From the IMG/VR virus record IMGVR_UViG_3300030380_003294: 64,000 bases of DNA; one strand, 5' to 3'. This stretch comes from a virus. Of the stretch, positions 19,881 through 30,029 are shown in pieces (the stretch's first letter is position 1; each line of letters starts with the position of its first letter). Below the pieces are notes generated by a model, which was given only the letters and a program-made list of their open reading frames with translations, searched no databases and was not told where the DNA came from. Position numbers and translations under genes: made by a program.

Positions 19881-19888
19881 TATTTATA
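19881..19888 (-). promoter_or_regulatory. T4 gp55-type late promoter TATAAATA
   Basis: Exact consensus 30 bp upstream of the 19851 start, overlapping the upstream stop codon. Confidence 0.75.
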
Positions 19889-20921
19889 GAATAAACGTCA
19901 CTAGGAATGCATACCCTATTAACCATAAACACAATCCACCTAAGACCTTATAATATTTCTTGAGAGGTGTACCAAAGTATTGTTGTCCGATCATCAAACA
20001 TTTATGTGCAGGGGATAGTAGATACCCTGAGTATTCAGTTGCTAAGAACCATACAAGATACTGTTGACCAAAGATCAATACAAGTGCTGATGTCATACCT
20101 GCATACTTACCTGATGATCCCATGATATATGCTGCAACCATACCTACGAGAGTTACAGGAATAATCATACTAGGATCTGCTGCTTTTAGATATGCCATGA
20201 CAGGTGCTTTAATAAGACCTACCACACCACCAAGAGCAAGAACAATAGTAGCAATAATAGCAAAACGACCGTCAAGATACTTACCCCACTTCCAATCTTT
20301 ACAAATGATACTGTAATAACATGCCATGCCTATGAACCAAGGAAAGAAGAATATTGCTCCTGCTTTACCTACACACAATAAGAACCAAATCGTTGCAATA
20401 AATGGTGCCCATCCTCGTAATGCCCTCTGCCAGTTGAAGTCTCGGATATTATCCATGTTAGGTACAACTGATCGGGGATCAACCTTAGTAAAGATGAACC
20501 ACCATGTATATACCAAACAGATAATCAGAGGTACAAATGTATATGATAGCATTTGTCCATAAGTAATACCCAATGCTGCCATAGGCAGGATGATAGTCTT
20601 TTCTAATGGACTCCACCAATAGTAATGATGAGTTGAAAGATAATCAATGATCCCGAAGTTGGATCTCTTTTCTTTACTTGGTGGTGCGATAGCATCCAGT
20701 AGTGGTGCGGATAGTGCTACCCTGCCTGGGATTGGTAGTACACCACCCAAGATAGAGGTGATAATAATCATCACCCTGTTGTCTTTAATATATTTCTTTG
20801 CGAGTGAGTAAACATCATCTAGTACATGATACTCTCGAATAAATCCACCGAGGATCATGATACCAAAAATGTAACCCATGTAGAGTTCTTTTTGGGCGAT
20901 CGATTCTAAGATCTTAGACAT
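19884..20921 (-). CDS. Multi-pass membrane protein, DUF401-like (ion-transporter superfamily)
   Basis: About 9-10 hydrophobic segments; PGRVALSAPLLD and GYLLSPAHKCL motifs. Confidence 0.7.
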   Translation of the reverse strand: MSKILESIAQKELYMGYIFGIMILGGFIREYHVLDDVYSLAKKYIKDNRVMIIITSILGGVLPIPGRVALSAPLLDAIAPPSKEKRSNFGIIDYLSTHHYYWWSPLEKTIILPMAALGITYGQMLSYTFVPLIICLVYTWWFIFTKVDPRSVVPNMDNIRDFNWQRALRGWAPFIATIWFLLCVGKAGAIFFFPWFIGMACYYSIICKDWKWGKYLDGRFAIIATIVLALGGVVGLIKAPVMAYLKAADPSMIIPVTLVGMVAAYIMGSSGKYAGMTSALVLIFGQQYLVWFLATEYSGYLLSPAHKCLMIGQQYFGTPLKKYYKVLGGLCLWLIGYAFLVTFIL

Positions 20922-21414
20922 AATTAAAGTTGATTACCATTCTAAAGGATGCATTTGTAGTTGATGTACCTGTATGTTTCATACCATTTGGAAAGGTTAC
21001 GAACCTGTTAGCAACAGATTCTACCTTAGTACCATCTTCAAATGCTGTGTATCCATCACATGTATTCATATAAAGGATACTTGTCTTTATGTATGGACGA
21101 TCTTCTGCATCCAATACATCAACATGCATACCATGTTCAACGAGACGATCAGTCCCCATGACAAGATTTGCTTTGCACTTGATCATAGCACAAGGTTGTA
21201 CTTTTTGCAAGACAGGGTAAAGAACTTCAATAGTCTTGTCAACAGGTGCATGCCTGTCATAAAAGAAATGTACCATCTGCATATTACGATTCACATTCTC
21301 AGGTGTGTCATCAACAATCTTAGATGATTCCCAGAGTATGTTGTAACTCATCATCATCTTATACAGATGTGTAAACTCTTCTACTGGTAGGAACTGATCT
21401 TCTACATTAATCAT
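20914..21414 (-). CDS. 2OG-Fe(II) oxygenase-like protein
   Basis: HxD (HVD)...SILYMNTCDGYT...H (KHTG)...R (RMVINFNY); start reassigned to MINVEDQF. Confidence 0.8.
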   Translation of the reverse strand: MINVEDQFLPVEEFTHLYKMMMSYNILWESSKIVDDTPENVNRNMQMVHFFYDRHAPVDKTIEVLYPVLQKVQPCAMIKCKANLVMGTDRLVEHGMHVDVLDAEDRPYIKTSILYMNTCDGYTAFEDGTKVESVANRFVTFPNGMKHTGTSTTNASFRMVINFNYV

Positions 21415-21701
21415 TAATAAAGCGACTCCTCCTGATTGCTCAGAATAACTACATCGGACTCTGGATATGCCACACAAGTGAGAACAAATCCTTCTGCGAG
21501 TTGGTCATCATCAAGGAAAGATTGCTCTTCTTGATTGACTGTACCTTCCTCGACTTTACCTGCACAAGTTGAACAAGCACCTGCTCTACACGAGTATGGT
21601 AGATCAACTCCTGCTTCTTCTGCTGCGTCTAGAATATACTGATCGCCTTCGCATTCAAAGGTATCTTTAGTGCCATCGGGGTGTTTAAAAGTAACGTTCA
21701 T
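21414..21701 (-). CDS. petF: Plant-type [2Fe-2S] ferredoxin
   Basis: [15 protein letters not shown]...DQSFL-like EQSFLDDDQ...VLTCVAYP. Confidence 0.97.
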
Positions 21702-21728: not shown

Positions 21729-23453
21729 TTACTTCTCAATCACAGCAACGTGTACACCATTCCAGAAATCGTTAGCATCCTCTGACTTTTCGGTCAGAAT
21801 AGTTCTCTCCCACAGCACATTCTTGTCTTTTAGAAACTCCTTTGCTCTTTCCATTACTTTGTCAAAGTTTGCATCATCAATAACCAGAATGTAATCCTTA
21901 TCAGCATGCTTATGAAGATGTTCCAAGTTTGGAATCATATCCTCGTTGACATCAGCATCATAGAATATCACACGAGGGGGATACTGAGGATTAAATTCAA
22001 CTGCTTGAATAGGTTTAACAGAGAAACCAATAGAACAATCAGTATTCATCCATTTCTCTGCGTTCTTAATGAACTCATCAACTGGATTTGTGACGTTCTC
22101 GTAATCTTTATGCAAGTCTTTACGTTTAGGTTTGATAATTTCATCTTGGAAATCATCAATAGCATATGCCTTGACTGCACTATTCTGATATAGAGCAGCG
22201 AATACTGTACTACCCATGTATGCACCTGCATCAACATATACTGTCCCACGCTCATTGCATAGGTTGTTGAGTAAGTGTCTGATTTTATTAGATGACAATC
22301 CAAGCACATCATAACCCTCAGGGTTAAAATTAGAGTTGTTATCTACAGCACCATCAATGGCACGAATGGCACGATCTACCAGAGGATTCATTTTTCGTTG
22401 TTGCTTCTTCAATCGAGAGTCTAGCACAGATTCGCAATAGTTGCAATCCCAACAGTCAAATTGACATGTTTTAATCTTCTCTCGCCAGATATTTATGGGT
22501 GCATCAGGCATCTTGATGTCATCCATGTACTCTTCAAAGTGAGGAAACATCAACGTAGTTGGTTCTTGCCATCTTTCAATAAGATCCATGGACTCTTTTA
22601 GTCTCATGCCATCTTCTCTACCATGTAACTTGAATACATCAATACCAAGATCTAAGAACTCTTGCCAGTCCTCCTTCCAAGGGGGTAAGTTTGCTGCTTT
22701 AAGTTCATGTGCAGGGTCATAAGCATCCCATCGCTGACATGATACACGACTGATAGTGCTATTGAAGTATTGAGGTTCACTTCCCTGTCTTGTACTATTA
22801 TATTGATAATGCTCTGGCATGATAGGACATCCACCCCAACAATGCTCATTCACAAGCAATGATAGTTTGACTGGATTACCTTTCTCTTCACAATATTTCT
22901 TGGCATCAACAATTCTTTTTAGCAGATTTCTATCTCTCATCACATCCCTATCAAGGTTAATGTAATGGAAACCTGCACTTGCAAGGGTGACTATCTCGTT
23001 AGGTTTTGTCACCTCTCGTAAGATAGTATTCTTAATTTCTAGTTCTGGAAAATGTTTTTGGATCTGTCCAGTCATGATCCATGATGTATGAGGTATAGTT
23101 GCACACCTCACACCATTATCATATAGAAACTTAAAGTTCTTGATGAACTCATCTAGGTTCTTTTGATCGGGTCTTACCCAAATGTTATTGAATGTAGCAG
23201 ACAGGGGAATACCTGTCTTATCTGAAATGTATAAAGCATTCTTTGCAGCACCTTGTGCATCGCTATTGGTGCGAAAAACATCCCCCATCGCATCCTGCAT
23301 GAATGGGGGCATTCTTGTAGTAAAGTATAGGTCGTATATTACCGTTCCATTTCTCAGCAGGAATGGAATGAACTCCTCGTCAATAAACTCAGGACTTACC
23401 TTCGGATTGATTGGCAGACTGAATACGCCTATCTTCGAGGTTGTTGTGTGCAT
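21729..23453 (-). CDS. U32-family (TIM-barrel Fe-S) domain fused to a class I SAM methyltransferase
   Basis: LLVNEHCWGGCP...H...SC...FKLHGRE and CQFDCWDCNYC motifs; C-terminal YVDAGAYMGST...AIDDF...IFYD...LVIDD Rossmann methyltransferase (Methyltransf_24-like). Confidence 0.75.
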   Translation of the reverse strand: MHTTTSKIGVFSLPINPKVSPEFIDEEFIPFLLRNGTVIYDLYFTTRMPPFMQDAMGDVFRTNSDAQGAAKNALYISDKTGIPLSATFNNIWVRPDQKNLDEFIKNFKFLYDNGVRCATIPHTSWIMTGQIQKHFPELEIKNTILREVTKPNEIVTLASAGFHYINLDRDVMRDRNLLKRIVDAKKYCEEKGNPVKLSLLVNEHCWGGCPIMPEHYQYNSTRQGSEPQYFNSTISRVSCQRWDAYDPAHELKAANLPPWKEDWQEFLDLGIDVFKLHGREDGMRLKESMDLIERWQEPTTLMFPHFEEYMDDIKMPDAPINIWREKIKTCQFDCWDCNYCESVLDSRLKKQQRKMNPLVDRAIRAIDGAVDNNSNFNPEGYDVLGLSSNKIRHLLNNLCNERGTVYVDAGAYMGSTVFAALYQNSAVKAYAIDDFQDEIIKPKRKDLHKDYENVTNPVDEFIKNAEKWMNTDCSIGFSVKPIQAVEFNPQYPPRVIFYDADVNEDMIPNLEHLHKHADKDYILVIDDANFDKVMERAKEFLKDKNVLWERTILTEKSEDANDFWNGVHVAVIEK

Positions 23454-24291
23454 AATCTGAGAGAACTCCTGCTGTATCAAATAGTTGCGGTGGTTTGCCT
23501 TCCATCATTTTATCGACCCTTGCTTCTGCTGCTTCTTTAATGCCACCAACAGATCTATTGACAGCAGTAGAGTATGTCATCGCAAGATCACATACAGCAC
23601 CTTGATCTTCTGGTGCCATTTGCAACATAGATTCCAAGTTACCTGCTTGGATTCTACCAGTAGTTAGCAAGTCAATAGCAGACTGTTTACCCATACGAGC
23701 AATCCAATACTTATGCTCTTCAACTTCTTCTAGTTGTTTGTCCTCTAGAATTTTGACAATTTCACTTGCATCGTCAGTTCCTGCTTTCTCTTTAATAATA
23801 TTAAAGAAACCATTGAGTTCCTCTTTACATTGCCTGAGTTTGTTTAACCAAATCTGCCTATCAAGATACAGCAATTCTAGTTCGTATTGCTTATCCTGCT
23901 TGTAAAAAGGATTCTCTTCCTTTTCCATTTCATGCTTAACTCTAGCAATATCATTTAGACACCGCTTGAATTGAATTGTACTTTTTGATAGAGAATTCGT
24001 TCTACCTTGAATCTCCATCATTGCCTGTCGGATCTGCCTGTAGGGTGTGACCTGACTATTAACAACGTAATACTTGTTTTGAAATTCTGTTTGTCCGAAG
24101 TGTTGTTGCTCTGACCATGCCATCAGAGATTCATCGAACTTATCAATTTCTTCCCACTTATCAATACCTTCGAGTTCCTTAATTACATCAGAAACTCTGT
24201 AATCGGTATCAGAACTGGATTCCTTTTGAGTAGTCGAAAGGTTGTTTTCTTTCGATGTTTCCTGTTTCTTCATTGGTTGTGCATCTTCCAT
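23389..24291 (-). CDS. Helical/coiled-coil hypothetical protein
   Basis: About 300 aa; GQTEFQNKYYVVNSQVTPYRQIRQAMMEI and YWIARMGKQSAIDLL; start at 24291 or 24273. Confidence 0.75.
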   Translation of the reverse strand: MEDAQPMKKQETSKENNLSTTQKESSSDTDYRVSDVIKELEGIDKWEEIDKFDESLMAWSEQQHFGQTEFQNKYYVVNSQVTPYRQIRQAMMEIQGRTNSLSKSTIQFKRCLNDIARVKHEMEKEENPFYKQDKQYELELLYLDRQIWLNKLRQCKEELNGFFNIIKEKAGTDDASEIVKILEDKQLEEVEEHKYWIARMGKQSAIDLLTTGRIQAGNLESMLQMAPEDQGAVCDLAMTYSTAVNRSVGGIKEAAEARVDKMMEGKPPQLFDTAGVLSDYAHNNLEDRRIQSANQSEGKS

Positions 24292-24976
24292 ATTCAAGAC
24301 ATTGTGCATTTGACATTGCACTATTGAAGTAATCTTCAAGTACAACGTTCAGTTCACGAACACTAGAACACCCATTAATAATCTGGATCATCTTTTGTTC
24401 TGCGACTGCTAAGTCATAGAGTCCTGTTTTAAACTCTGATTGCTTGTCAACTATTTTAGTCGCAAACTGTAGAGTTGTCAAGTCTCTGACCTCTGCTAAC
24501 TTATGTATAAGTTTTGTCTCGAACTCATTATCAGCAAGGTATGCGGTTGCTTCACAAATCTGATCTGACCATGTTGCTTCTTCAAGTGTAGAGAATTTAG
24601 TTTTAAGAACATTATGTCTATGCTCAAACTCTTCTTGCACTGCCAGTACCATGACATCCTTCATGAAAGGAATGACATAGTTTGAGTACATTGTATCATC
24701 TATAGTCTCTTTTTCTTTATTTGTAGTTCCCTCTTCGTTTTGTCCGTAAGTAGATCTTTGATGCCTAATCTCTCCCCAGTACTTGTCTCCAAAGATACCA
24801 TCTTTACTGGTATATCTGAGATATGTAATGTGCTGAGGGATATACTTAAAGTATTCATCTGCAAGATGATATGATTCCAGTCCTAGGTAAGTACCAATAC
24901 GGACTCCCCACTCTCCCACCTTAGGATATTTCTCGACATCTAAAACGATGACGTCATTTGAAGTTGTGCTTGTCAT
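24209..24976 (-). CDS. Tail-fibre assembly chaperone-like protein
   Basis: EEATWSDQICEATAYLAD...LAEVRDLT...KIVDK resembles the E..TW..Q..EA.A motif of fibre-assembly proteins. Confidence 0.6.
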   Translation of the reverse strand: MTSTTSNDVIVLDVEKYPKVGEWGVRIGTYLGLESYHLADEYFKYIPQHITYLRYTSKDGIFGDKYWGEIRHQRSTYGQNEEGTTNKEKETIDDTMYSNYVIPFMKDVMVLAVQEEFEHRHNVLKTKFSTLEEATWSDQICEATAYLADNEFETKLIHKLAEVRDLTTLQFATKIVDKQSEFKTGLYDLAVAEQKMIQIINGCSSVRELNVVLEDYFNSAMSNAQCLEYGRCTTNEETGNIERKQPFDYSKGIQF

Positions 24977-26358
24977 TAGTAGTTAGGAATGTTTGTACCG
25001 TAATCGTAGTTGCCCTGTCCTGATACAGAACTAGAGGACGAACAGTGTGCTGATGACATGCCACCATGTCCTGATGGTGGTGAACTACCACCTAAGTTGT
25101 TGTAACTATCACTATTATAGTTCACTTTGAATGTGTTATTGTTCTGAGAACCATTATAGTTACCTAAACAATATCCTTTTCTCATACCCATTTCAAAGTT
25201 TTCTTCACCCATGTTACCGAAGTTAAGACCTCTAACTTGAATACCAGTAATGTCGTTACACTTCTGGTTACCATTCTGGTTGTTATTACCTGTACCAACG
25301 TACATATGTCCTAACATACTAGGAAGAATCTTCTTCCAACCATCACCACCTGGTCCATGTTCCCATGACACCCAAGATTCAGTCTTGAAGAACTGACCTC
25401 TTCTAGTTCCAGATCTCTTGACCCAACCATAAAGTCTTCCATGTCCACCCCATGTAGGGTCATCGCCACCATCATCATAGTTTGGTGGGAAACCTGAGGT
25501 TCTCATAGTTTCAGTCTTAAGATTCATAGCGTCAACTCTTGAGTTACCACCACCATATAGGTAAGACATACCTCCTGCGTGTTCATGATCTTGGTGAGAT
25601 CCCATTGAACCTCTGTTCACCGTCATGTTCCACTGCGACTGGTGTGTTAAACCAGATTCAGTTGACATTGACATCGCATTGGTATAGTTTGAAGAACCTC
25701 TATAAGTGTTCTCCATAGAGTGAAAGAAGTGCTTAGTATCAGTCCATGATCCTGCCATGTAAGCACCTGATCTATCTAAGATATCTCCTAAGTTCGATGA
25801 TGTATCTGTAGAGTGTACCGTTCTGTTTACGTTTCTCCAAGGCGAACCAGACTGGTAACCTCCTCCAACATATCCGTGTGTCCAAATTCTTGCTGTTGAC
25901 CATCCATTATCGTTTTCTCCATCGAATGACCAATATGCGTTAGTTCCGTCTGATCTTAATAATGCTCCGTTCGTGTAATTTAAACTATATCTATCGTTAG
26001 ACTGGTCTGGTAATGAACTTCCTGCTCCTGCAATCGGACCCCATTGTACCTGTCCTGCGTCTTGATCGTATGAGTAACCTTCAAAGGTTCTATCTGTACT
26101 GTTATATCTGAATAATCCTTCTACTGCTGCCCCTGGTCTTTGTGCGGTAGTACCTACAGGTACTTTCATACCGTCTGTACCTGCAATATCTAACGTATAA
26201 CTAGGTGATGCATCATTAACACCGAGTCTATTATTAGTAGAGTCAACATACAGAGTGCCAGAGTCAAAGTTAAAGTTTCCACCCGCCTCCAGTTGGAATT
26301 CAGCAGTTCCACCACCACCTGTTAGTGATACAATTTTATCAACGTTTAACTGAGACAT
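24976..26358 (-). CDS. Fibre-type N-terminal adaptor plus kelch-like beta-propeller protein
   Basis: PVGTTAQRP...GLFRYN domain, then GYVGGG/SYLYGGG/GYCLG blade-like repeats. Confidence 0.7.
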   Translation of the reverse strand: MSQLNVDKIVSLTGGGGTAEFQLEAGGNFNFDSGTLYVDSTNNRLGVNDASPSYTLDIAGTDGMKVPVGTTAQRPGAAVEGLFRYNSTDRTFEGYSYDQDAGQVQWGPIAGAGSSLPDQSNDRYSLNYTNGALLRSDGTNAYWSFDGENDNGWSTARIWTHGYVGGGYQSGSPWRNVNRTVHSTDTSSNLGDILDRSGAYMAGSWTDTKHFFHSMENTYRGSSNYTNAMSMSTESGLTHQSQWNMTVNRGSMGSHQDHEHAGGMSYLYGGGNSRVDAMNLKTETMRTSGFPPNYDDGGDDPTWGGHGRLYGWVKRSGTRRGQFFKTESWVSWEHGPGGDGWKKILPSMLGHMYVGTGNNNQNGNQKCNDITGIQVRGLNFGNMGEENFEMGMRKGYCLGNYNGSQNNNTFKVNYNSDSYNNLGGSSPPSGHGGMSSAHCSSSSSVSGQGNYDYGTNIPNY

Positions 26359-26384
26359 GTGTAGTTTTTACTCCTTCGTATTAT

Positions 26385-27494
26385 TTATGCAGGTCGAACA
26401 AGCACACAACCTCTTTTAAGGTATGTATCCTCGTTTCCACTGTCTTGGTCTGAGTGAATAACAACATGCATATCATCTGTGTATGATGTGCCGAGATCAA
26501 CGGTGAACCATGCATCACCATTAAACACGTTTGGTCCAGTACCACCAGAATTATCTCCTGGCTGAACTGTAAAGTTTCTCACAAATTCTGAGGTGTAACT
26601 AGATCCAGATCTAGAGAAGCATGTGTATCTATTACCCATGAAACCACCTGGGTTGTTACCACCTGCAACGTGAGTTGGTTGCATTCCTGCTACTGATGGG
26701 CATGAGTTACCATCATTATTAGAAATAGCAGTATAGTAAGTAAAGATGTGTTGTCCATCCCCTGCACCTGAGTTGTCACGCATGATCGTTAGACCATCAC
26801 CAACACCAGATGAAATATTTAGGAAGTTACGACCATTGACACCATCATTAGAATAATAGTTATAGAGATTAAATCTCATCTTTACATAACGATATGATAC
26901 ACCTCTATTACTAAAGGTTGCATATCGATAATCAGATCCACCTACGTTTCTGTAGTAACCGTATGTGCTATTGTTTGTAAAGTTACCTGCAGGAGTTGTA
27001 TCTCCTGTGTCATTCAAGTTATTACCTGATAATGATGATGCGTTACTGAAGAATGCAGCACCACCGCCACCCCAGTTACCAATCAAAAGATAATATGGAT
27101 GACTGTTTACAGGCACAAAGTATCTACGAACTGTACCATCTAGGTTTAGATAGTAGTTACCGTCAGCAGCAACACCTGCATCCATAAGTTCTTGAACACT
27201 AGATGCTGCTGTAGCAGCAGTTCCACCATTATTACCACCAGATGATGCCCTTACAATTTGTAACCATGAACTACCATTATAAACTTCTACTTGCAATTCT
27301 TCTGTATTAAACCTAATCATTCCTGTTGATGGGGATGATGGTCTTTGTGCTGTAGTTCCTGCAGGTAAACTAAATTGATTAAGTGCAGTCATATTACATG
27401 TACCCGCAACAAGCAACGACTCTCCATCATCGAAGTTGATCTCGAAGTTATTCATCGAGGATGCGTGTAGTTCGTTAACGTTTAGAGTACTCAT
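26385..27494 (-). CDS. Fibre/receptor-binding-like protein
   Basis: LPAGTTAQRP..GMIRFN adaptor, ADGNYYL fibrinogen-like linker, lectin-like C-terminus. Confidence 0.7.
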   Translation of the reverse strand: MSTLNVNELHASSMNNFEINFDDGESLLVAGTCNMTALNQFSLPAGTTAQRPSSPSTGMIRFNTEELQVEVYNGSSWLQIVRASSGGNNGGTAATAASSVQELMDAGVAADGNYYLNLDGTVRRYFVPVNSHPYYLLIGNWGGGGAAFFSNASSLSGNNLNDTGDTTPAGNFTNNSTYGYYRNVGGSDYRYATFSNRGVSYRYVKMRFNLYNYYSNDGVNGRNFLNISSGVGDGLTIMRDNSGAGDGQHIFTYYTAISNNDGNSCPSVAGMQPTHVAGGNNPGGFMGNRYTCFSRSGSSYTSEFVRNFTVQPGDNSGGTGPNVFNGDAWFTVDLGTSYTDDMHVVIHSDQDSGNEDTYLKRGCVLVRPA

Positions 27495-27497
27495 GTT

Positions 27498-28529
27498 TTA
27501 TGCGTAGAAGAATAACCAGTACATATGATTTTGGGATCCAGGGTTATTTATCCCCCAACTACCAGACCAGTTAGGTTCTGGGAAGTTTTGGTTTGAATAG
27601 TTGTTACCTGTCTGTCCTACCCATGCATGGTGTTCAACGTTACAACCGTTAGATGCACAACCTAAAGCATTAATCATACTGAAAGTATAGTTTTCGCAGT
27701 TTGCGGGTGAAACATGCCAAGTATTGTTTGGATTAAGTTCACCTGCACTACTACCTCTATATCTATTGTCTGATGCCTGTGCAGATCCTTTCAAGAACTG
27801 CATTCCTGAGAGTTGTGTACCACCAATGTTACTATGGTTGTTTAGAGAGATGTAACTATTGAACATATTATACATGTTTCCACCTCTGGAAGTGAAAACA
27901 CCATTGATATATGCAACTTCAGTAGATGTATCGTAAGGTGTACCTGCTGTAGCAAACCCTTGCATAATCAATACATCATTTGCTGACCATCCTCTATAAT
28001 GATTTGACTTGAAGTCAGTTCCCATTGCATTTCTTGCAGTACCAGTAGTTGATGTAGTTGTCCAGTTACCATACCAAGAGTCTGAACCACCTGTGTAACT
28101 ACCATGTGAAGTATTGTCTGTAATAGATGCAACCATGACCCAATACTTACCATTACCATCCTTATATGCATACACTTCTTCTGTATTAGTGCCATCAAAC
28201 TTGATATACCAATATCCAGATCCAGGGTCATTACTTGATAAGTTTGCCATTGATGTGAATGGTGCATTAGATGTACCATTCTCTCCTTGATATTGTACCC
28301 AAGTGCTACCACTCCATACTTCTACCGCCTGATCACTTGTATTCCACCGTATATACCCTGGGTTTGGACTACTTGGTCTTTGCCCAGTTGTACCTGTAGG
28401 TAGACGCAAAGCACCAGTTCCATCGTGATAAACATTACCGTTTATCTGCAATGTATGCCCTGCAGGAATTGATGTTTGATTTAGTGTTGCGGGTATGCCA
28501 CCGATGCTACCAACAGTTAGTCTGCTCAT
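27498..28529 (-). CDS. Fibre/receptor-binding-like protein (fibrinogen/intelectin-like head)
   Basis: LPTGTTGQRP..GYIRWN adaptor; SGYWYIK...WVMVAS...DFKS pattern. Confidence 0.7.
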   Translation of the reverse strand: MSRLTVGSIGGIPATLNQTSIPAGHTLQINGNVYHDGTGALRLPTGTTGQRPSSPNPGYIRWNTSDQAVEVWSGSTWVQYQGENGTSNAPFTSMANLSSNDPGSGYWYIKFDGTNTEEVYAYKDGNGKYWVMVASITDNTSHGSYTGGSDSWYGNWTTTSTTGTARNAMGTDFKSNHYRGWSANDVLIMQGFATAGTPYDTSTEVAYINGVFTSRGGNMYNMFNSYISLNNHSNIGGTQLSGMQFLKGSAQASDNRYRGSSAGELNPNNTWHVSPANCENYTFSMINALGCASNGCNVEHHAWVGQTGNNYSNQNFPEPNWSGSWGINNPGSQNHMYWLFFYA

Positions 28530-28551
28530 TCTATTAAGCGTTTACTTCTAT

Positions 28552-29175
28552 TTATTGACCTGGGGTTGGATACTCCTCCACCCATGCAGTAACAATGTAC
28601 TTATCTTTATTTAGGGGCGGATTACCTCGGTGTGTCCATGCCCAGTCACAAGGGAAGATAACAAACTTACCTGCCTTTGGTTTTACTCTGAAATGTTGAT
28701 ATAAAAATTCTGTTTCACCACCTTCAAATCCATCATTTAGATAGATCATGGTTGCTAACTTACGATATGGTGCAGAGGGTGTTGATTCATAGTGCCATGC
28801 ATGATAACCCTGCCCAGGTTCTGTCTTTTGGAGTTTCGCCATGGTATGTTGAAACCTACGTCCAACCAGAATATCATACTTCAATACATACTCTCTTAAT
28901 GCTTGTTCAGTAAGATAATTCCAACGTTGGAAGATTGATCTTGACAAATTATCATGAAAGTATTCTACTGGTAACTCATGCATAAAGATTTGAGAATCAG
29001 CAGCACCTTTCTCTGCGTGTCTCTTGATTGTCAAACCATTATCTGATATGAACTTATAGTAATCCAGTATTGGTTGACAATCTAGATTAGTTTCAAACTC
29101 ACTAATGAAATTATCGTTGTGTGTTACATTAGTGATTACTGGTTCGCCTCCATACTGAGAAGCGAAAGGACTCAT
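28552..29175 (-). CDS. 2OG-Fe(II) oxygenase (prolyl 4-hydroxylase-like)
   Basis: GYHAWHYE...IYLNDGFEGGETEF...FP..W..THRGNPP...KYIVTAW. Confidence 0.9.
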   Translation of the reverse strand: MSPFASQYGGEPVITNVTHNDNFISEFETNLDCQPILDYYKFISDNGLTIKRHAEKGAADSQIFMHELPVEYFHDNLSRSIFQRWNYLTEQALREYVLKYDILVGRRFQHTMAKLQKTEPGQGYHAWHYESTPSAPYRKLATMIYLNDGFEGGETEFLYQHFRVKPKAGKFVIFPCDWAWTHRGNPPLNKDKYIVTAWVEEYPTPGQ

Positions 29176-29363
29176 TACCATTTATTAATCGGGCAGTGGA
29201 ATACAGGAAAGCGTGCTTTAACTGCAAGCACACAATTACATTTAGTACAGATCCCAATAGGGGATTTATACTGACAGTCATTGCATATTCTAATCCGATT
29301 TTGATATAATGTCAAGTCAGGTACATCACCATCCTCGACAATCAGTTTAGCTTGACCAGACAC
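29175..29363 (-). CDS. Small Cys-rich metal-binding protein
   Basis: RIRICNDC...CTKCNC...K......CP..KW, six Cys. Confidence 0.75.
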   Translation of the reverse strand: MSGQAKLIVEDGDVPDLTLYQNRIRICNDCQYKSPIGICTKCNCVLAVKARFPVFHCPINKW

Positions 29364-29616
29364 CGTTATTGAATACTTCTAATTTATTGGATCCCGTATT
29401 GAATCTTAACTGCCCGTTTACATATCCTCTGTTGGGTGCTCTATCAATCACTATATCATCAAACTGTTGAGTTGTGCCATATGGTAATGGTAATGCACTT
29501 TGTGATCCTGTAATTCTTAATTCTGCTCCACCTTTAAATGCAAAATCACTGTCTTGATCTAAAGTAACAGTGAATCCAGGTGTTAGTCCTTGTAATTGTG
29601 CAACTCTTACCTTCAT
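29347..29616 (-). CDS. Short fibre-adaptor-only protein
   Basis: LPYGTTQQF...GQLRFNTGSNKLEVFNNGVW with no head domain. Confidence 0.65.
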   Translation of the reverse strand: MKVRVAQLQGLTPGFTVTLDQDSDFAFKGGAELRITGSQSALPLPYGTTQQFDDIVIDRAPNRGYVNGQLRFNTGSNKLEVFNNGVWSS

Positions 29617-30029
29617 CGTACACTCCAAGCACCACCAGACTCCACAGTGACTGTGAAACCAGAGTTAATTGTGATAGGTCCTGCACTCATTCCGTTAGCA
29701 AATTCTGCTCCTGCACTTGGTCCGACTGAAATATTTTCTGCAATAGTGTTTGCGTTAGTTCTAATGATACTATCCGTTCCTAAACTTGGTCCACCACCTG
29801 CAACTGGTGCCCATCCTGCACTACCTGTACCATCATCTGCTTTATAGATTTCTGCGGAGTCAAGATCACTATTGAATCTTAGTGTACCAACTGAAATACC
29901 AGTAGGTCTTTGTGCCTGAGTACCTGAGGGTAACCTAAACACTGAGTTAGTGTTCAAGAAACTTAAGGTTGTTATGATTGCTTGTGTACTAGTGGCAATC
30001 TGATTACCACTTACTCTTGAAATTGCCAT
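29613..30029 (-). CDS. Short tail-fibre connector protein
   Basis: LPSGTQAQRP..GTLRFN plus C-terminal NGMSAGPITINSGFTVTV..G..W motif. Confidence 0.7.
   Translation of the reverse strand: MAISRVSGNQIATSTQAIITTLSFLNTNSVFRLPSGTQAQRPTGISVGTLRFNSDLDSAEIYKADDGTGSAGWAPVAGGGPSLGTDSIIRTNANTIAENISVGPSAGAEFANGMSAGPITINSGFTVTVESGGAWSVR

Follow-up and report, generated by a model that had tools for sequence, protein, structure and literature searches.

A marine cyanophage tail-fibre cassette protein predicted to join a remote U32-superfamily barrel to an O-methyltransferase-like domain

The 64,000-nucleotide viral stretch IMGVR_UViG_3300030380_003294 (IMG/VR), called the window below, carries a gene for a 574-residue protein at 21729..23453 on the minus strand, stop included. 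The N-terminal domain of this protein (N-domain) is strongly supported as a remote branch of the U32 superfamily. Judged from its modelled structure, the C-terminal domain (C-domain) is closest to the cation-dependent O-methyltransferases. We favour, tentatively and short of an even chance, the view that the protein is a two-domain tailoring enzyme, which would hydroxylate and then O-methylate a macromolecule linked to the tail fibre. The barrel would bind one or two iron-sulphur (Fe-S) clusters and hydroxylate a carbon of the substrate without O2, in the manner of UbiU/UbiV, TrhP and RlhA, with prephenate probably donating the oxygen. The fused domain would then methylate the new hydroxyl with S-adenosylmethionine (SAM), leaving a methoxy group. 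The substrate would most likely be a macromolecule of the tail-fibre module, either the propeller-like fibre protein itself or a surface glycan, and not a transfer RNA (tRNA). This order of steps is proposed because the sole chemistry linked to U32 proteins is an O2-independent, prephenate-dependent hydroxylation (PMC10990095), because the second domain is of the O-methyltransferase type, and because relatives of the barrel have hydroxyl-directed enzymes as partners. A fibre-linked substrate is proposed because the gene lies in a conserved cassette, and because relatives are paired with a glycosyltransferase or belong to a sulfotransferase operon that supplies 3'-phosphoadenosine-5'-phosphosulfate (PAPS).

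The start codon is the ATG at 23453; an in-frame TTG at 23480 is unused in relatives, which begin at the same first Met. The whole gene equals T4-GC_354, the label of its counterpart in the P-HM2 and metaG-MbCM1 annotations, and phrog_1458, which its protein matches with E 1.7e-287. The family comprises 1937 relatives counted as 90%-identity clusters, and is present in 126 phage records. The window comes from a T4-like cyanomyovirus, whose nearest named record is Prochlorococcus phage P-RSM1 (89% identity for the protein under study, 74-98% for neighbouring genes). Near-identical DNA was found in marine metagenomes from 11 studies. Metatranscriptome contigs from two studies span the gene and its cassette at about 97-98% identity; they are no proof of transcription and were not used as support.

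The N-domain (residues 1-365; 22359..23453; positions refer to the window, and all features in it described here lie on the minus strand) was compared with 56 diverse relatives sharing 23-47% identity with the window protein. Seven cysteines are invariant in this alignment and fall into a group of three and a group of four. The motif NEHCWGGCP (residues 202-210; 22824..22850), located after strand 7 of the predicted barrel, contains C205 and C209, and VSC (residues 237-239; 22737..22745) contributes C239, the third cysteine of the putative barrel-face group. The other four (C330, C334, C337 and C340) are found in CQFDCWDCNYC (residues 330-340; 22434..22466), a loop preceding the linker helix that is a putative second metal site. 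FKLHGRE (residues 274-280; 22614..22634) stands straight after strand 8. In the same alignment D41, N89, K141, T143, D168, R169, R173, E203, E214, H215, D272, K275, G278 and R279 are nearly invariant. Since the cysteines are invariant, and K275, G278 and R279 nearly so, in such divergent relatives, this set of motifs is not due to chance. The motifs named in a preliminary description of the gene (NEHCWGGCP, SC, FKLHGRE, CQFDCWDCNYC and, in the C-domain, DADV) are all present where it placed them.

That description had also assigned the N-domain to U32. AlphaFold2, run on the N-domain alignment, returned the expected U32-like architecture, namely an eight-stranded TIM barrel with three helices and the Cys loop (pLDDT 92.3, pTM 0.90). 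The best solved match in Foldseek was the U32 protein Mk0906 (5d88; E 1.9e-7). The same structure came top in a VIA search against 48,161 chains (Z 16.6, root-mean-square deviation 3.2 Å, 229/247 residues), followed, with Z no higher than 12.8, by generic barrels such as methylenetetrahydrofolate reductase (MTHFR). In profile-profile comparison with hhalign, the probability of a relationship to U32 was 57% with four E. coli paralogues as template, 79% with a ten-sequence template and 95.3% with a 16-sequence template (E 2.3e-8, score 65.9) that included U32 genes of four unrelated bacterial genomes. Controls with reversed or column-shuffled templates scored at most 20.7, with a probability below 1%. 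A search for YegQ homologues returned orthologues at least 89% identical, save one at 59%; it was the genes of the bacterial genomes, not this search, that widened the U32 profile. The confident core of the alignment covers residues 66-186 against YegQ 44-157, corresponding to strands 3-6. In the extended, low-confidence part, C205xxxC209 falls on the CX3C of U32 proteins, and FKLHGR on the KIEGR of the E. coli U32 proteins.

Thus the N-domain shares with the U32 hydroxylation proteins (UbiU/UbiV, TrhP/YegQ, RlhA/YdcP) a TIM barrel of the Mk0906 type and a profile similarity over strands 3-6 that stands above the controls. In the low-confidence part of the alignment it also shares a C-x3-C after strand 7 and a K-x-x-G-R after strand 8, read here as F-K-L-H-G-R at 274-279. 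Unlike these proteins, it gives no PF01136 match and lacks both the CX6C half of the cluster motif and the U32 C-terminal domain, whereas it possesses C239, the four-Cys C-terminal loop and the fused methyltransferase. The U32 link therefore rests on the predicted fold and the profile-profile comparison, not on PF01136, and the earlier assignment holds as a remote relationship but not by canonical U32 criteria. An exhaustive search of 1.84 billion representatives retrieved 294 relatives of the N-domain, mostly stand-alone proteins of 330-450 residues, and no Pfam families were found in them. The barrel genes coexist with canonical U32 genes in the same bacterial genomes. Sequence searches of the Protein Data Bank with the single protein and with profiles gave noise only, for example de novo TIM barrels and YacP, and a tblastn search of UbiV against phages returned contaminant records only. 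The top viral structural match outside the family was A0A3G3MCS7 (BFVD), a 269-residue 'Peptidase' of Escherichia phage OLB35 (Foldseek E 3.7e-11, TM 0.73 on the window protein, 20% identity). This coliphage protein may stand midway between canonical U32 proteins and the present branch.

The C-domain (residues 366-574; 21732..22358) was modelled as a seven-stranded class I SAM methyltransferase (AlphaFold2, pLDDT 96.5), in agreement with the preliminary description, and all top Foldseek and VIA matches are SAM methyltransferases; the relationship is a remote one. The leading VIA matches were small cation-dependent O-methyltransferases, namely 8c9v (Z 17.0), MeT1 (16.8), Rv0187 (16.6), a Coxiella O-methyltransferase (16.6) and B. 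subtilis TrmR (5zw3; 16.0), which lie within about 1 Z of some tRNA m1A and precorrin methyltransferases and are thus tied with them. Motif I, GAYMGST (residues 410-416; 22206..22226), would form the SAM-binding glycine loop. Its residues G410, G414, S415 and T416 do not vary among 24 fused proteins, nor do D433, D499, D526, D527 and N529. D433 corresponds to the acidic residue that class I methyltransferases require after strand 2. D499, in DADV (residues 499-502; 21948..21959), and the invariant DDAN (residues 526-529; 21867..21878) likely form an acidic cluster for metal or substrate.

With the cation-dependent O-methyltransferases of the Methyltransf_24 and Methyltransf_3 families, such as catechol/CCoAOMT enzymes, MeT1 and TylF/MycF/SpnH, the C-domain has in common its fold (Z 15-17), motif I and the strand-2 acidic residue, and probably also the acidic cluster D...DD.N. 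Unlike them, the C-domain is seen only in fused form, has replaced the His of DGDH and scores below the PF13578 (Methyltransf_24) cut-off (14.1 bits, E 0.094, against a gathering score of 26.3). In the Methyltransf_24 search that had been suggested as a check, the window protein itself thus stays under the cut-off, but relatives P0123 and P0060, with 36.4 and 31.1 bits, exceed it, and many relatives have a precomputed match. Loss of the DGxH His is confined to this clade, more distant relatives reading DGDH or DAEH. Because the SAM and acidic motifs are invariant, the domain is probably an active methyltransferase, and the degeneration contemplated earlier is unlikely. A search for short proteins related to the methyltransferase domain alone gave fragments only, and no close stand-alone form.

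The fusion of the two domains is not an assembly artefact, a concern raised in the preliminary description, because the full-length form is present in 123/126 phage records. The same methyltransferase recurs in four clusters defined at 50% identity. A different arrangement is seen in P0124 (L016 235-1896), a 553-residue protein in which the barrel is fused to DUF7483 (PF24299, E 1e-51), with no methyltransferase.

The gene closes a block of closely spaced genes. The block begins with a 460-residue propeller-like protein of the fibre region containing GGY-type repeats (phrog_1417; 24976..26358) and continues with a 255-residue helical protein (phrog_1604, T4-GC_352; 24209..24976) and a second helical protein of 294 or 318 residues (phrog_1409, T4-GC_353; 23389..24273), the end of whose gene overlaps the start of the gene studied here. 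The same block is found in P-RSM1, P-HM2, S-CAM4, metaG-MbCM1 and a Red Sea contig labelled 'Dehalococcoidia'. The latter (L031, PBPE01000072.1, from a Tara Red Sea metagenome-assembled genome) holds the complete cyanophage cassette, including the fused enzyme, and is evidently a cyanophage contig mis-binned into a bacterial genome. In metaG-MbCM1 (L046 3469-5062) each helical gene is annotated as two open reading frames (T4-GC_352 x2, T4-GC_353 x2), probably as a result of frameshift errors.

Parts of this arrangement extend well beyond cyanophages. Profiles of the cyanophage proteins identified a relative of the 318-residue protein, the barrel and a DUF401 protein, in this order, in the Ralstonia jumbo phage RP31. 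A 6.4-Mb Leptospirales chromosome carries a 1511-residue LamG/DUF2341 protein, both helical proteins, the barrel and DUF401; the propeller body matches the C-terminus of the LamG/DUF2341 protein. In metagenome contig L047 the barrel comes after both helical proteins. Relatives of phrog_1409 thus lie upstream of the barrel gene, adjoining it in cyanophages, RP31 and L047 and standing one gene off in Leptospirales; the Leptospirales locus and L047 also contain relatives of phrog_1604. The 294-residue helical partner had no usable match in the ESM Atlas, and searches of Pfam (E=10), NCBIfam and PADLOC returned nothing for the enzyme candidate or for either helical partner.

The location inside a structural gene block could also be read as a sign that the protein serves mainly in structure or assembly, either as a fibre-assembly factor or as a virion component with vestigial enzyme-like domains. 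A helical partner in L047, a relative of phrog_1604, does give a weak, sub-threshold Sheath_initiator match (E 2.7e-4). We judge such a role very improbable, as even very divergent relatives keep the seven cysteines, the putative barrel-face residues and the SAM and acidic motifs without variation, as active enzymes typically do.

Stand-alone relatives of the barrel occur in several other contexts. One is located among tailspike genes beside a GT2 glycosyltransferase gene, which overlaps the stop of the barrel gene. In Syntrophaceae/Smithella (L008 743-9287; L028 9169-14249), a one-strand operon comprises a sulfotransferase, two tandem barrel paralogues, a 258-residue weak relative, GNAT, TauE, CysD and CysN-CysC, and has the appearance of a sulfation pathway centred on the barrel family. 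Glycosyl-, sulfo- and methyltransferases typically act on hydroxyl groups. Another relative adjoins Gly_rich_2/DUF4376 fibre genes. In a Campylobacterales cluster (L012 1640-5808; L041 5970-10138), the barrel follows a radical SAM enzyme and a 291-residue protein, and precedes a paralogous radical SAM/SPASM enzyme, and on another contig a radical SAM gene overlaps the start of the barrel gene (P0128).

These contexts bear on the comparison with tRNA modification. In Bacillus subtilis, TrhP1/TrhP2 and TrmR (YrrM) convert U34 of tRNA to 5-hydroxyuridine (ho5U) and then to 5-methoxyuridine (mo5U). The protein resembles this system, to which the preliminary description had likened it, in pairing a U32-type step with a cation-dependent O-methyltransferase, and TrmR is among its tied top structural matches. 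TrhP and RlhA are, moreover, U32 proteins acting on RNA (PMC10990095). One might therefore imagine that the phage enzyme makes a 5-hydroxy- and then a 5-methoxy-pyrimidine (mo5U-like) in tRNA or ribosomal RNA, thereby tuning the decoding of AT-rich phage genes. However, TrhP and TrmR are separate proteins acting on tRNA, whereas the phage protein is a single chain, is devoid of an RNA-binding module and lies in a tail-fibre cassette. The phage protein has no Peptidase_U32_C (PF16325), a domain carried by E. coli YegQ/TrhP and its orthologues. The fibre-region cassette is conserved from cyanophages to a bacterial chromosome, and the relatives pair with GT2, a sulfotransferase or a membrane protein, not with RNA enzymes. 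The TrmR match itself is tied with many unrelated methyltransferases. Because the U32 C-terminal domain is missing and the tail-fibre context is conserved, the analogy stands for the pairing of the two steps but is weakened for the tRNA side. A tRNA target is unlikely, and RNA modification as a whole appears decidedly improbable. The isoelectric point of the protein did not discriminate between RNA-binding and other roles.

The contexts can also be read in favour of tailoring at the cell envelope. A DUF401/TIGR00529-like membrane protein is encoded two genes downstream (19884..20921), and in RP31, the Leptospirales chromosome and contig L022 a DUF401 gene directly adjoins, and overlaps, the barrel gene. 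DUF401-like genes were located at L002 6016-7056, L017 7071-8180 and L022 1359-2090. Only 12 records of the phage collection have DUF401, and the barrel gene was confirmed in 11 of them, S-H25 not being among the matches listed. Together with this membrane protein, the enzyme could alter a lipid, a quinone-like compound or a glycan on the host surface, and so mask receptors, exclude superinfection or contribute to auxiliary metabolism in the way of UbiU/V followed by UbiG. The PAPS/sulfotransferase/TauE and GT2 contexts would fit, as would the membrane-bound phenol that is the substrate of UbiU/V (bioRxiv 10.1101/587956). However, DUF401 occurs in only 9 of roughly 123 fused cyanophage records and is hence dispensable, the two genes are 56 kb apart in S-CAM4, and DUF401 is much less constant than the propeller and the helical partners. 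On balance we regard this alternative as unlikely. A pairing of canonical DUF401 with canonical U32 genes was also considered and rejected: in the one genome with both (G006), they are on different contigs.

Anaerobic ubiquinone synthesis offers a parallel in chemistry to the tailoring proposed here. As would be the case for the phage protein, UbiU/UbiV and UbiG hydroxylate an aromatic carbon and then O-methylate it with SAM. UbiT, an accessory non-catalytic partner of the UbiU/V system, is comparable to the helical partners, and an association with the membrane, as for UbiU/UbiV, would be possible through DUF401. In contrast to the single-chain protein, UbiU/V is a heterodimer with one four-Cys cluster in each subunit, and UbiG belongs to a different methyltransferase subfamily. 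Quinone-pathway genes are not near the phage gene.

Several observations weigh against the proposed hydroxylation and methylation of a fibre-linked substrate. PF01136 (gathering score 22.4 bits), the search suggested in the preliminary description, matched neither the whole protein nor the N-domain even at E=10; it matched one of the 56 relatives (E 0.033), and it misses the barrel genes in the five bacterial genomes scanned. U32 proteins, including the E. coli paralogues, display a PROSITE-type signature, E-x-F-x2-G-[SA]-[LIVM]-C-x4-G-x-C. The equivalent stretch of the phage protein, LSLLVNEHCWGGCP, departs from it. The published U32 motif binding a 4Fe-4S cluster is CX6CX15CX3/4C, from which UbiU and UbiV deviate (bioRxiv 10.1101/587956); of this motif only the CX3C (C205, C209) finds a counterpart in the phage protein, which lacks the CX6C pair, and C188, located 16 residues upstream, is not conserved outside cyanophages. 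Sequence cannot separate Fe-S from Zn binding, and the Foldseek matches following closely on 5d88 are the Zn/Cys3 TIM barrels of betaine-homocysteine methyltransferase (BHMT) type and MTHFR. The linkage to fibres comes from gene neighbourhood only. Finally, the pattern of hydroxyl-capping partners rests on three contexts, and other relatives stand beside radical SAM enzymes or in contexts lacking any transferase.

Some of these points would suit a barrel that is not a hydroxylase, in which Zn or Fe-S sites formed by the cysteines serve another chemistry, such as activation of a thiol or other nucleophile (as in Zn/Cys3 barrels), dehydration, reduction or a radical reaction, and the methyltransferase acts on a pre-existing group. 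BHMT is a Zn barrel with three cysteines; the barrel-face motif has only three cysteines; radical SAM/SPASM genes flank several relatives; and hydroxylase activity in vitro has so far been obtained with no U32 protein (PMC10990095). Against this stand the U32 fold, which is clearly the closest, and the profile comparison, in which U32 was the sole family recovered. C-x3-C-P and K-x-H-G-R align to the cluster and active-site motifs of U32 proteins, and the partner enzymes are of hydroxyl-directed types. A chemistry other than hydroxylation thus seems unlikely to us, and hydroxylation followed by O-methylation remains the tentatively preferred function.

The other genes near the enzyme candidate are less constant. 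A petF-like 2Fe-2S ferredoxin (Fer2, E 5e-26; 21414..21701) lies 27 nucleotides past its stop. At this position P-RSM1 has no gene, metaG-MbCM1 has an 89-residue open reading frame annotated 'esterase', and in one contig from a metatranscriptomic library 21415 is joined to 21736 via 268 other letters that replace the ferredoxin. Because of its absence there in P-RSM1 and metaG-MbCM1 and its replacement in that contig, the ferredoxin is strain-specific at its position and was rejected as a conserved, dedicated electron partner. It probably lies outside the conserved unit, and its position is a small replaceable cassette slot. The next gene (20914..21414), of about 166 residues, is 2OG-Fe(II)-oxygenase-like and follows the enzyme gene in P-RSM1 and metaG-MbCM1. 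Its end was set at 21414 as relatives cover the C-terminal 166 residues only; the 187-residue frame beginning with TTG reaches 21477 and would overlap the ferredoxin. This frame gives a weak 2OG-FeII_Oxy_3 match (E 3e-4), yet it carries the phrog_274 label 'DNA endonuclease V' and is called 'tail fiber protein' in GenBank for metaG-MbCM1. A 'denV' feature underlies the corresponding matches in Syn19, Syn33 and S-BM1, where identity of the gene was not confirmed. These conflicting annotations are probably wrong.

In the fibre region (24976-30029), proteins of 138, 343, 369 and 460 residues share a short N-terminal segment, as judged from PHROG and profile cross-matches, and look like an interchangeable family of fibre tips on a common adaptor. 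A prolyl-4-hydroxylase-like gene (28552-29181) stands amid these genes. The only library matches among the tested neighbours were a sub-threshold TIGR00529 match for the DUF401 protein and a phospholipase-effector match for a patatin neighbour. Matches to the T4 late-promoter motif TATAAATA numbered 5 against 4.0 expected and were uninformative.

Altogether, the phage protein joins an O-methyltransferase to a new form of the U32 superfamily that Pfam does not detect; this branch is plentiful both in cyanomyoviruses of the sea and in ocean metagenomes. The recognition that U32 proteins are Fe-S proteins needed for O2-independent, prephenate-dependent hydroxylation is recent, and for most of their subfamilies a substrate is not known, nor is an in vitro assay available. 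With its presumed follow-up enzyme fused and a small, fixed set of partners, the phage protein provides a compact system for finding both substrate and chemistry. A more specific and rather unlikely version of the proposal is a hitherto unknown, O2-independent post-translational pathway, in which the U32-like Fe-S enzyme would hydroxylate protein residues, such as aromatic ones in the GGY-repeat propeller at the fibre tip, or else a glycan that faces the receptor, and the hydroxyl would receive a methyl cap. In sister systems the cap would be a sugar or a sulfate instead, the helical proteins would be dedicated partners, and DUF401 would be an optional membrane component. If the target is a fibre protein or a receptor glycan, some of the most abundant ocean phages would tailor their virions or a surface in a way new to biology. 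If the post-translational version is true, U32 chemistry would reach beyond quinones and RNA and include proteins or glycans, and marine phages would gain a means of chemically tuning their adsorption structures.

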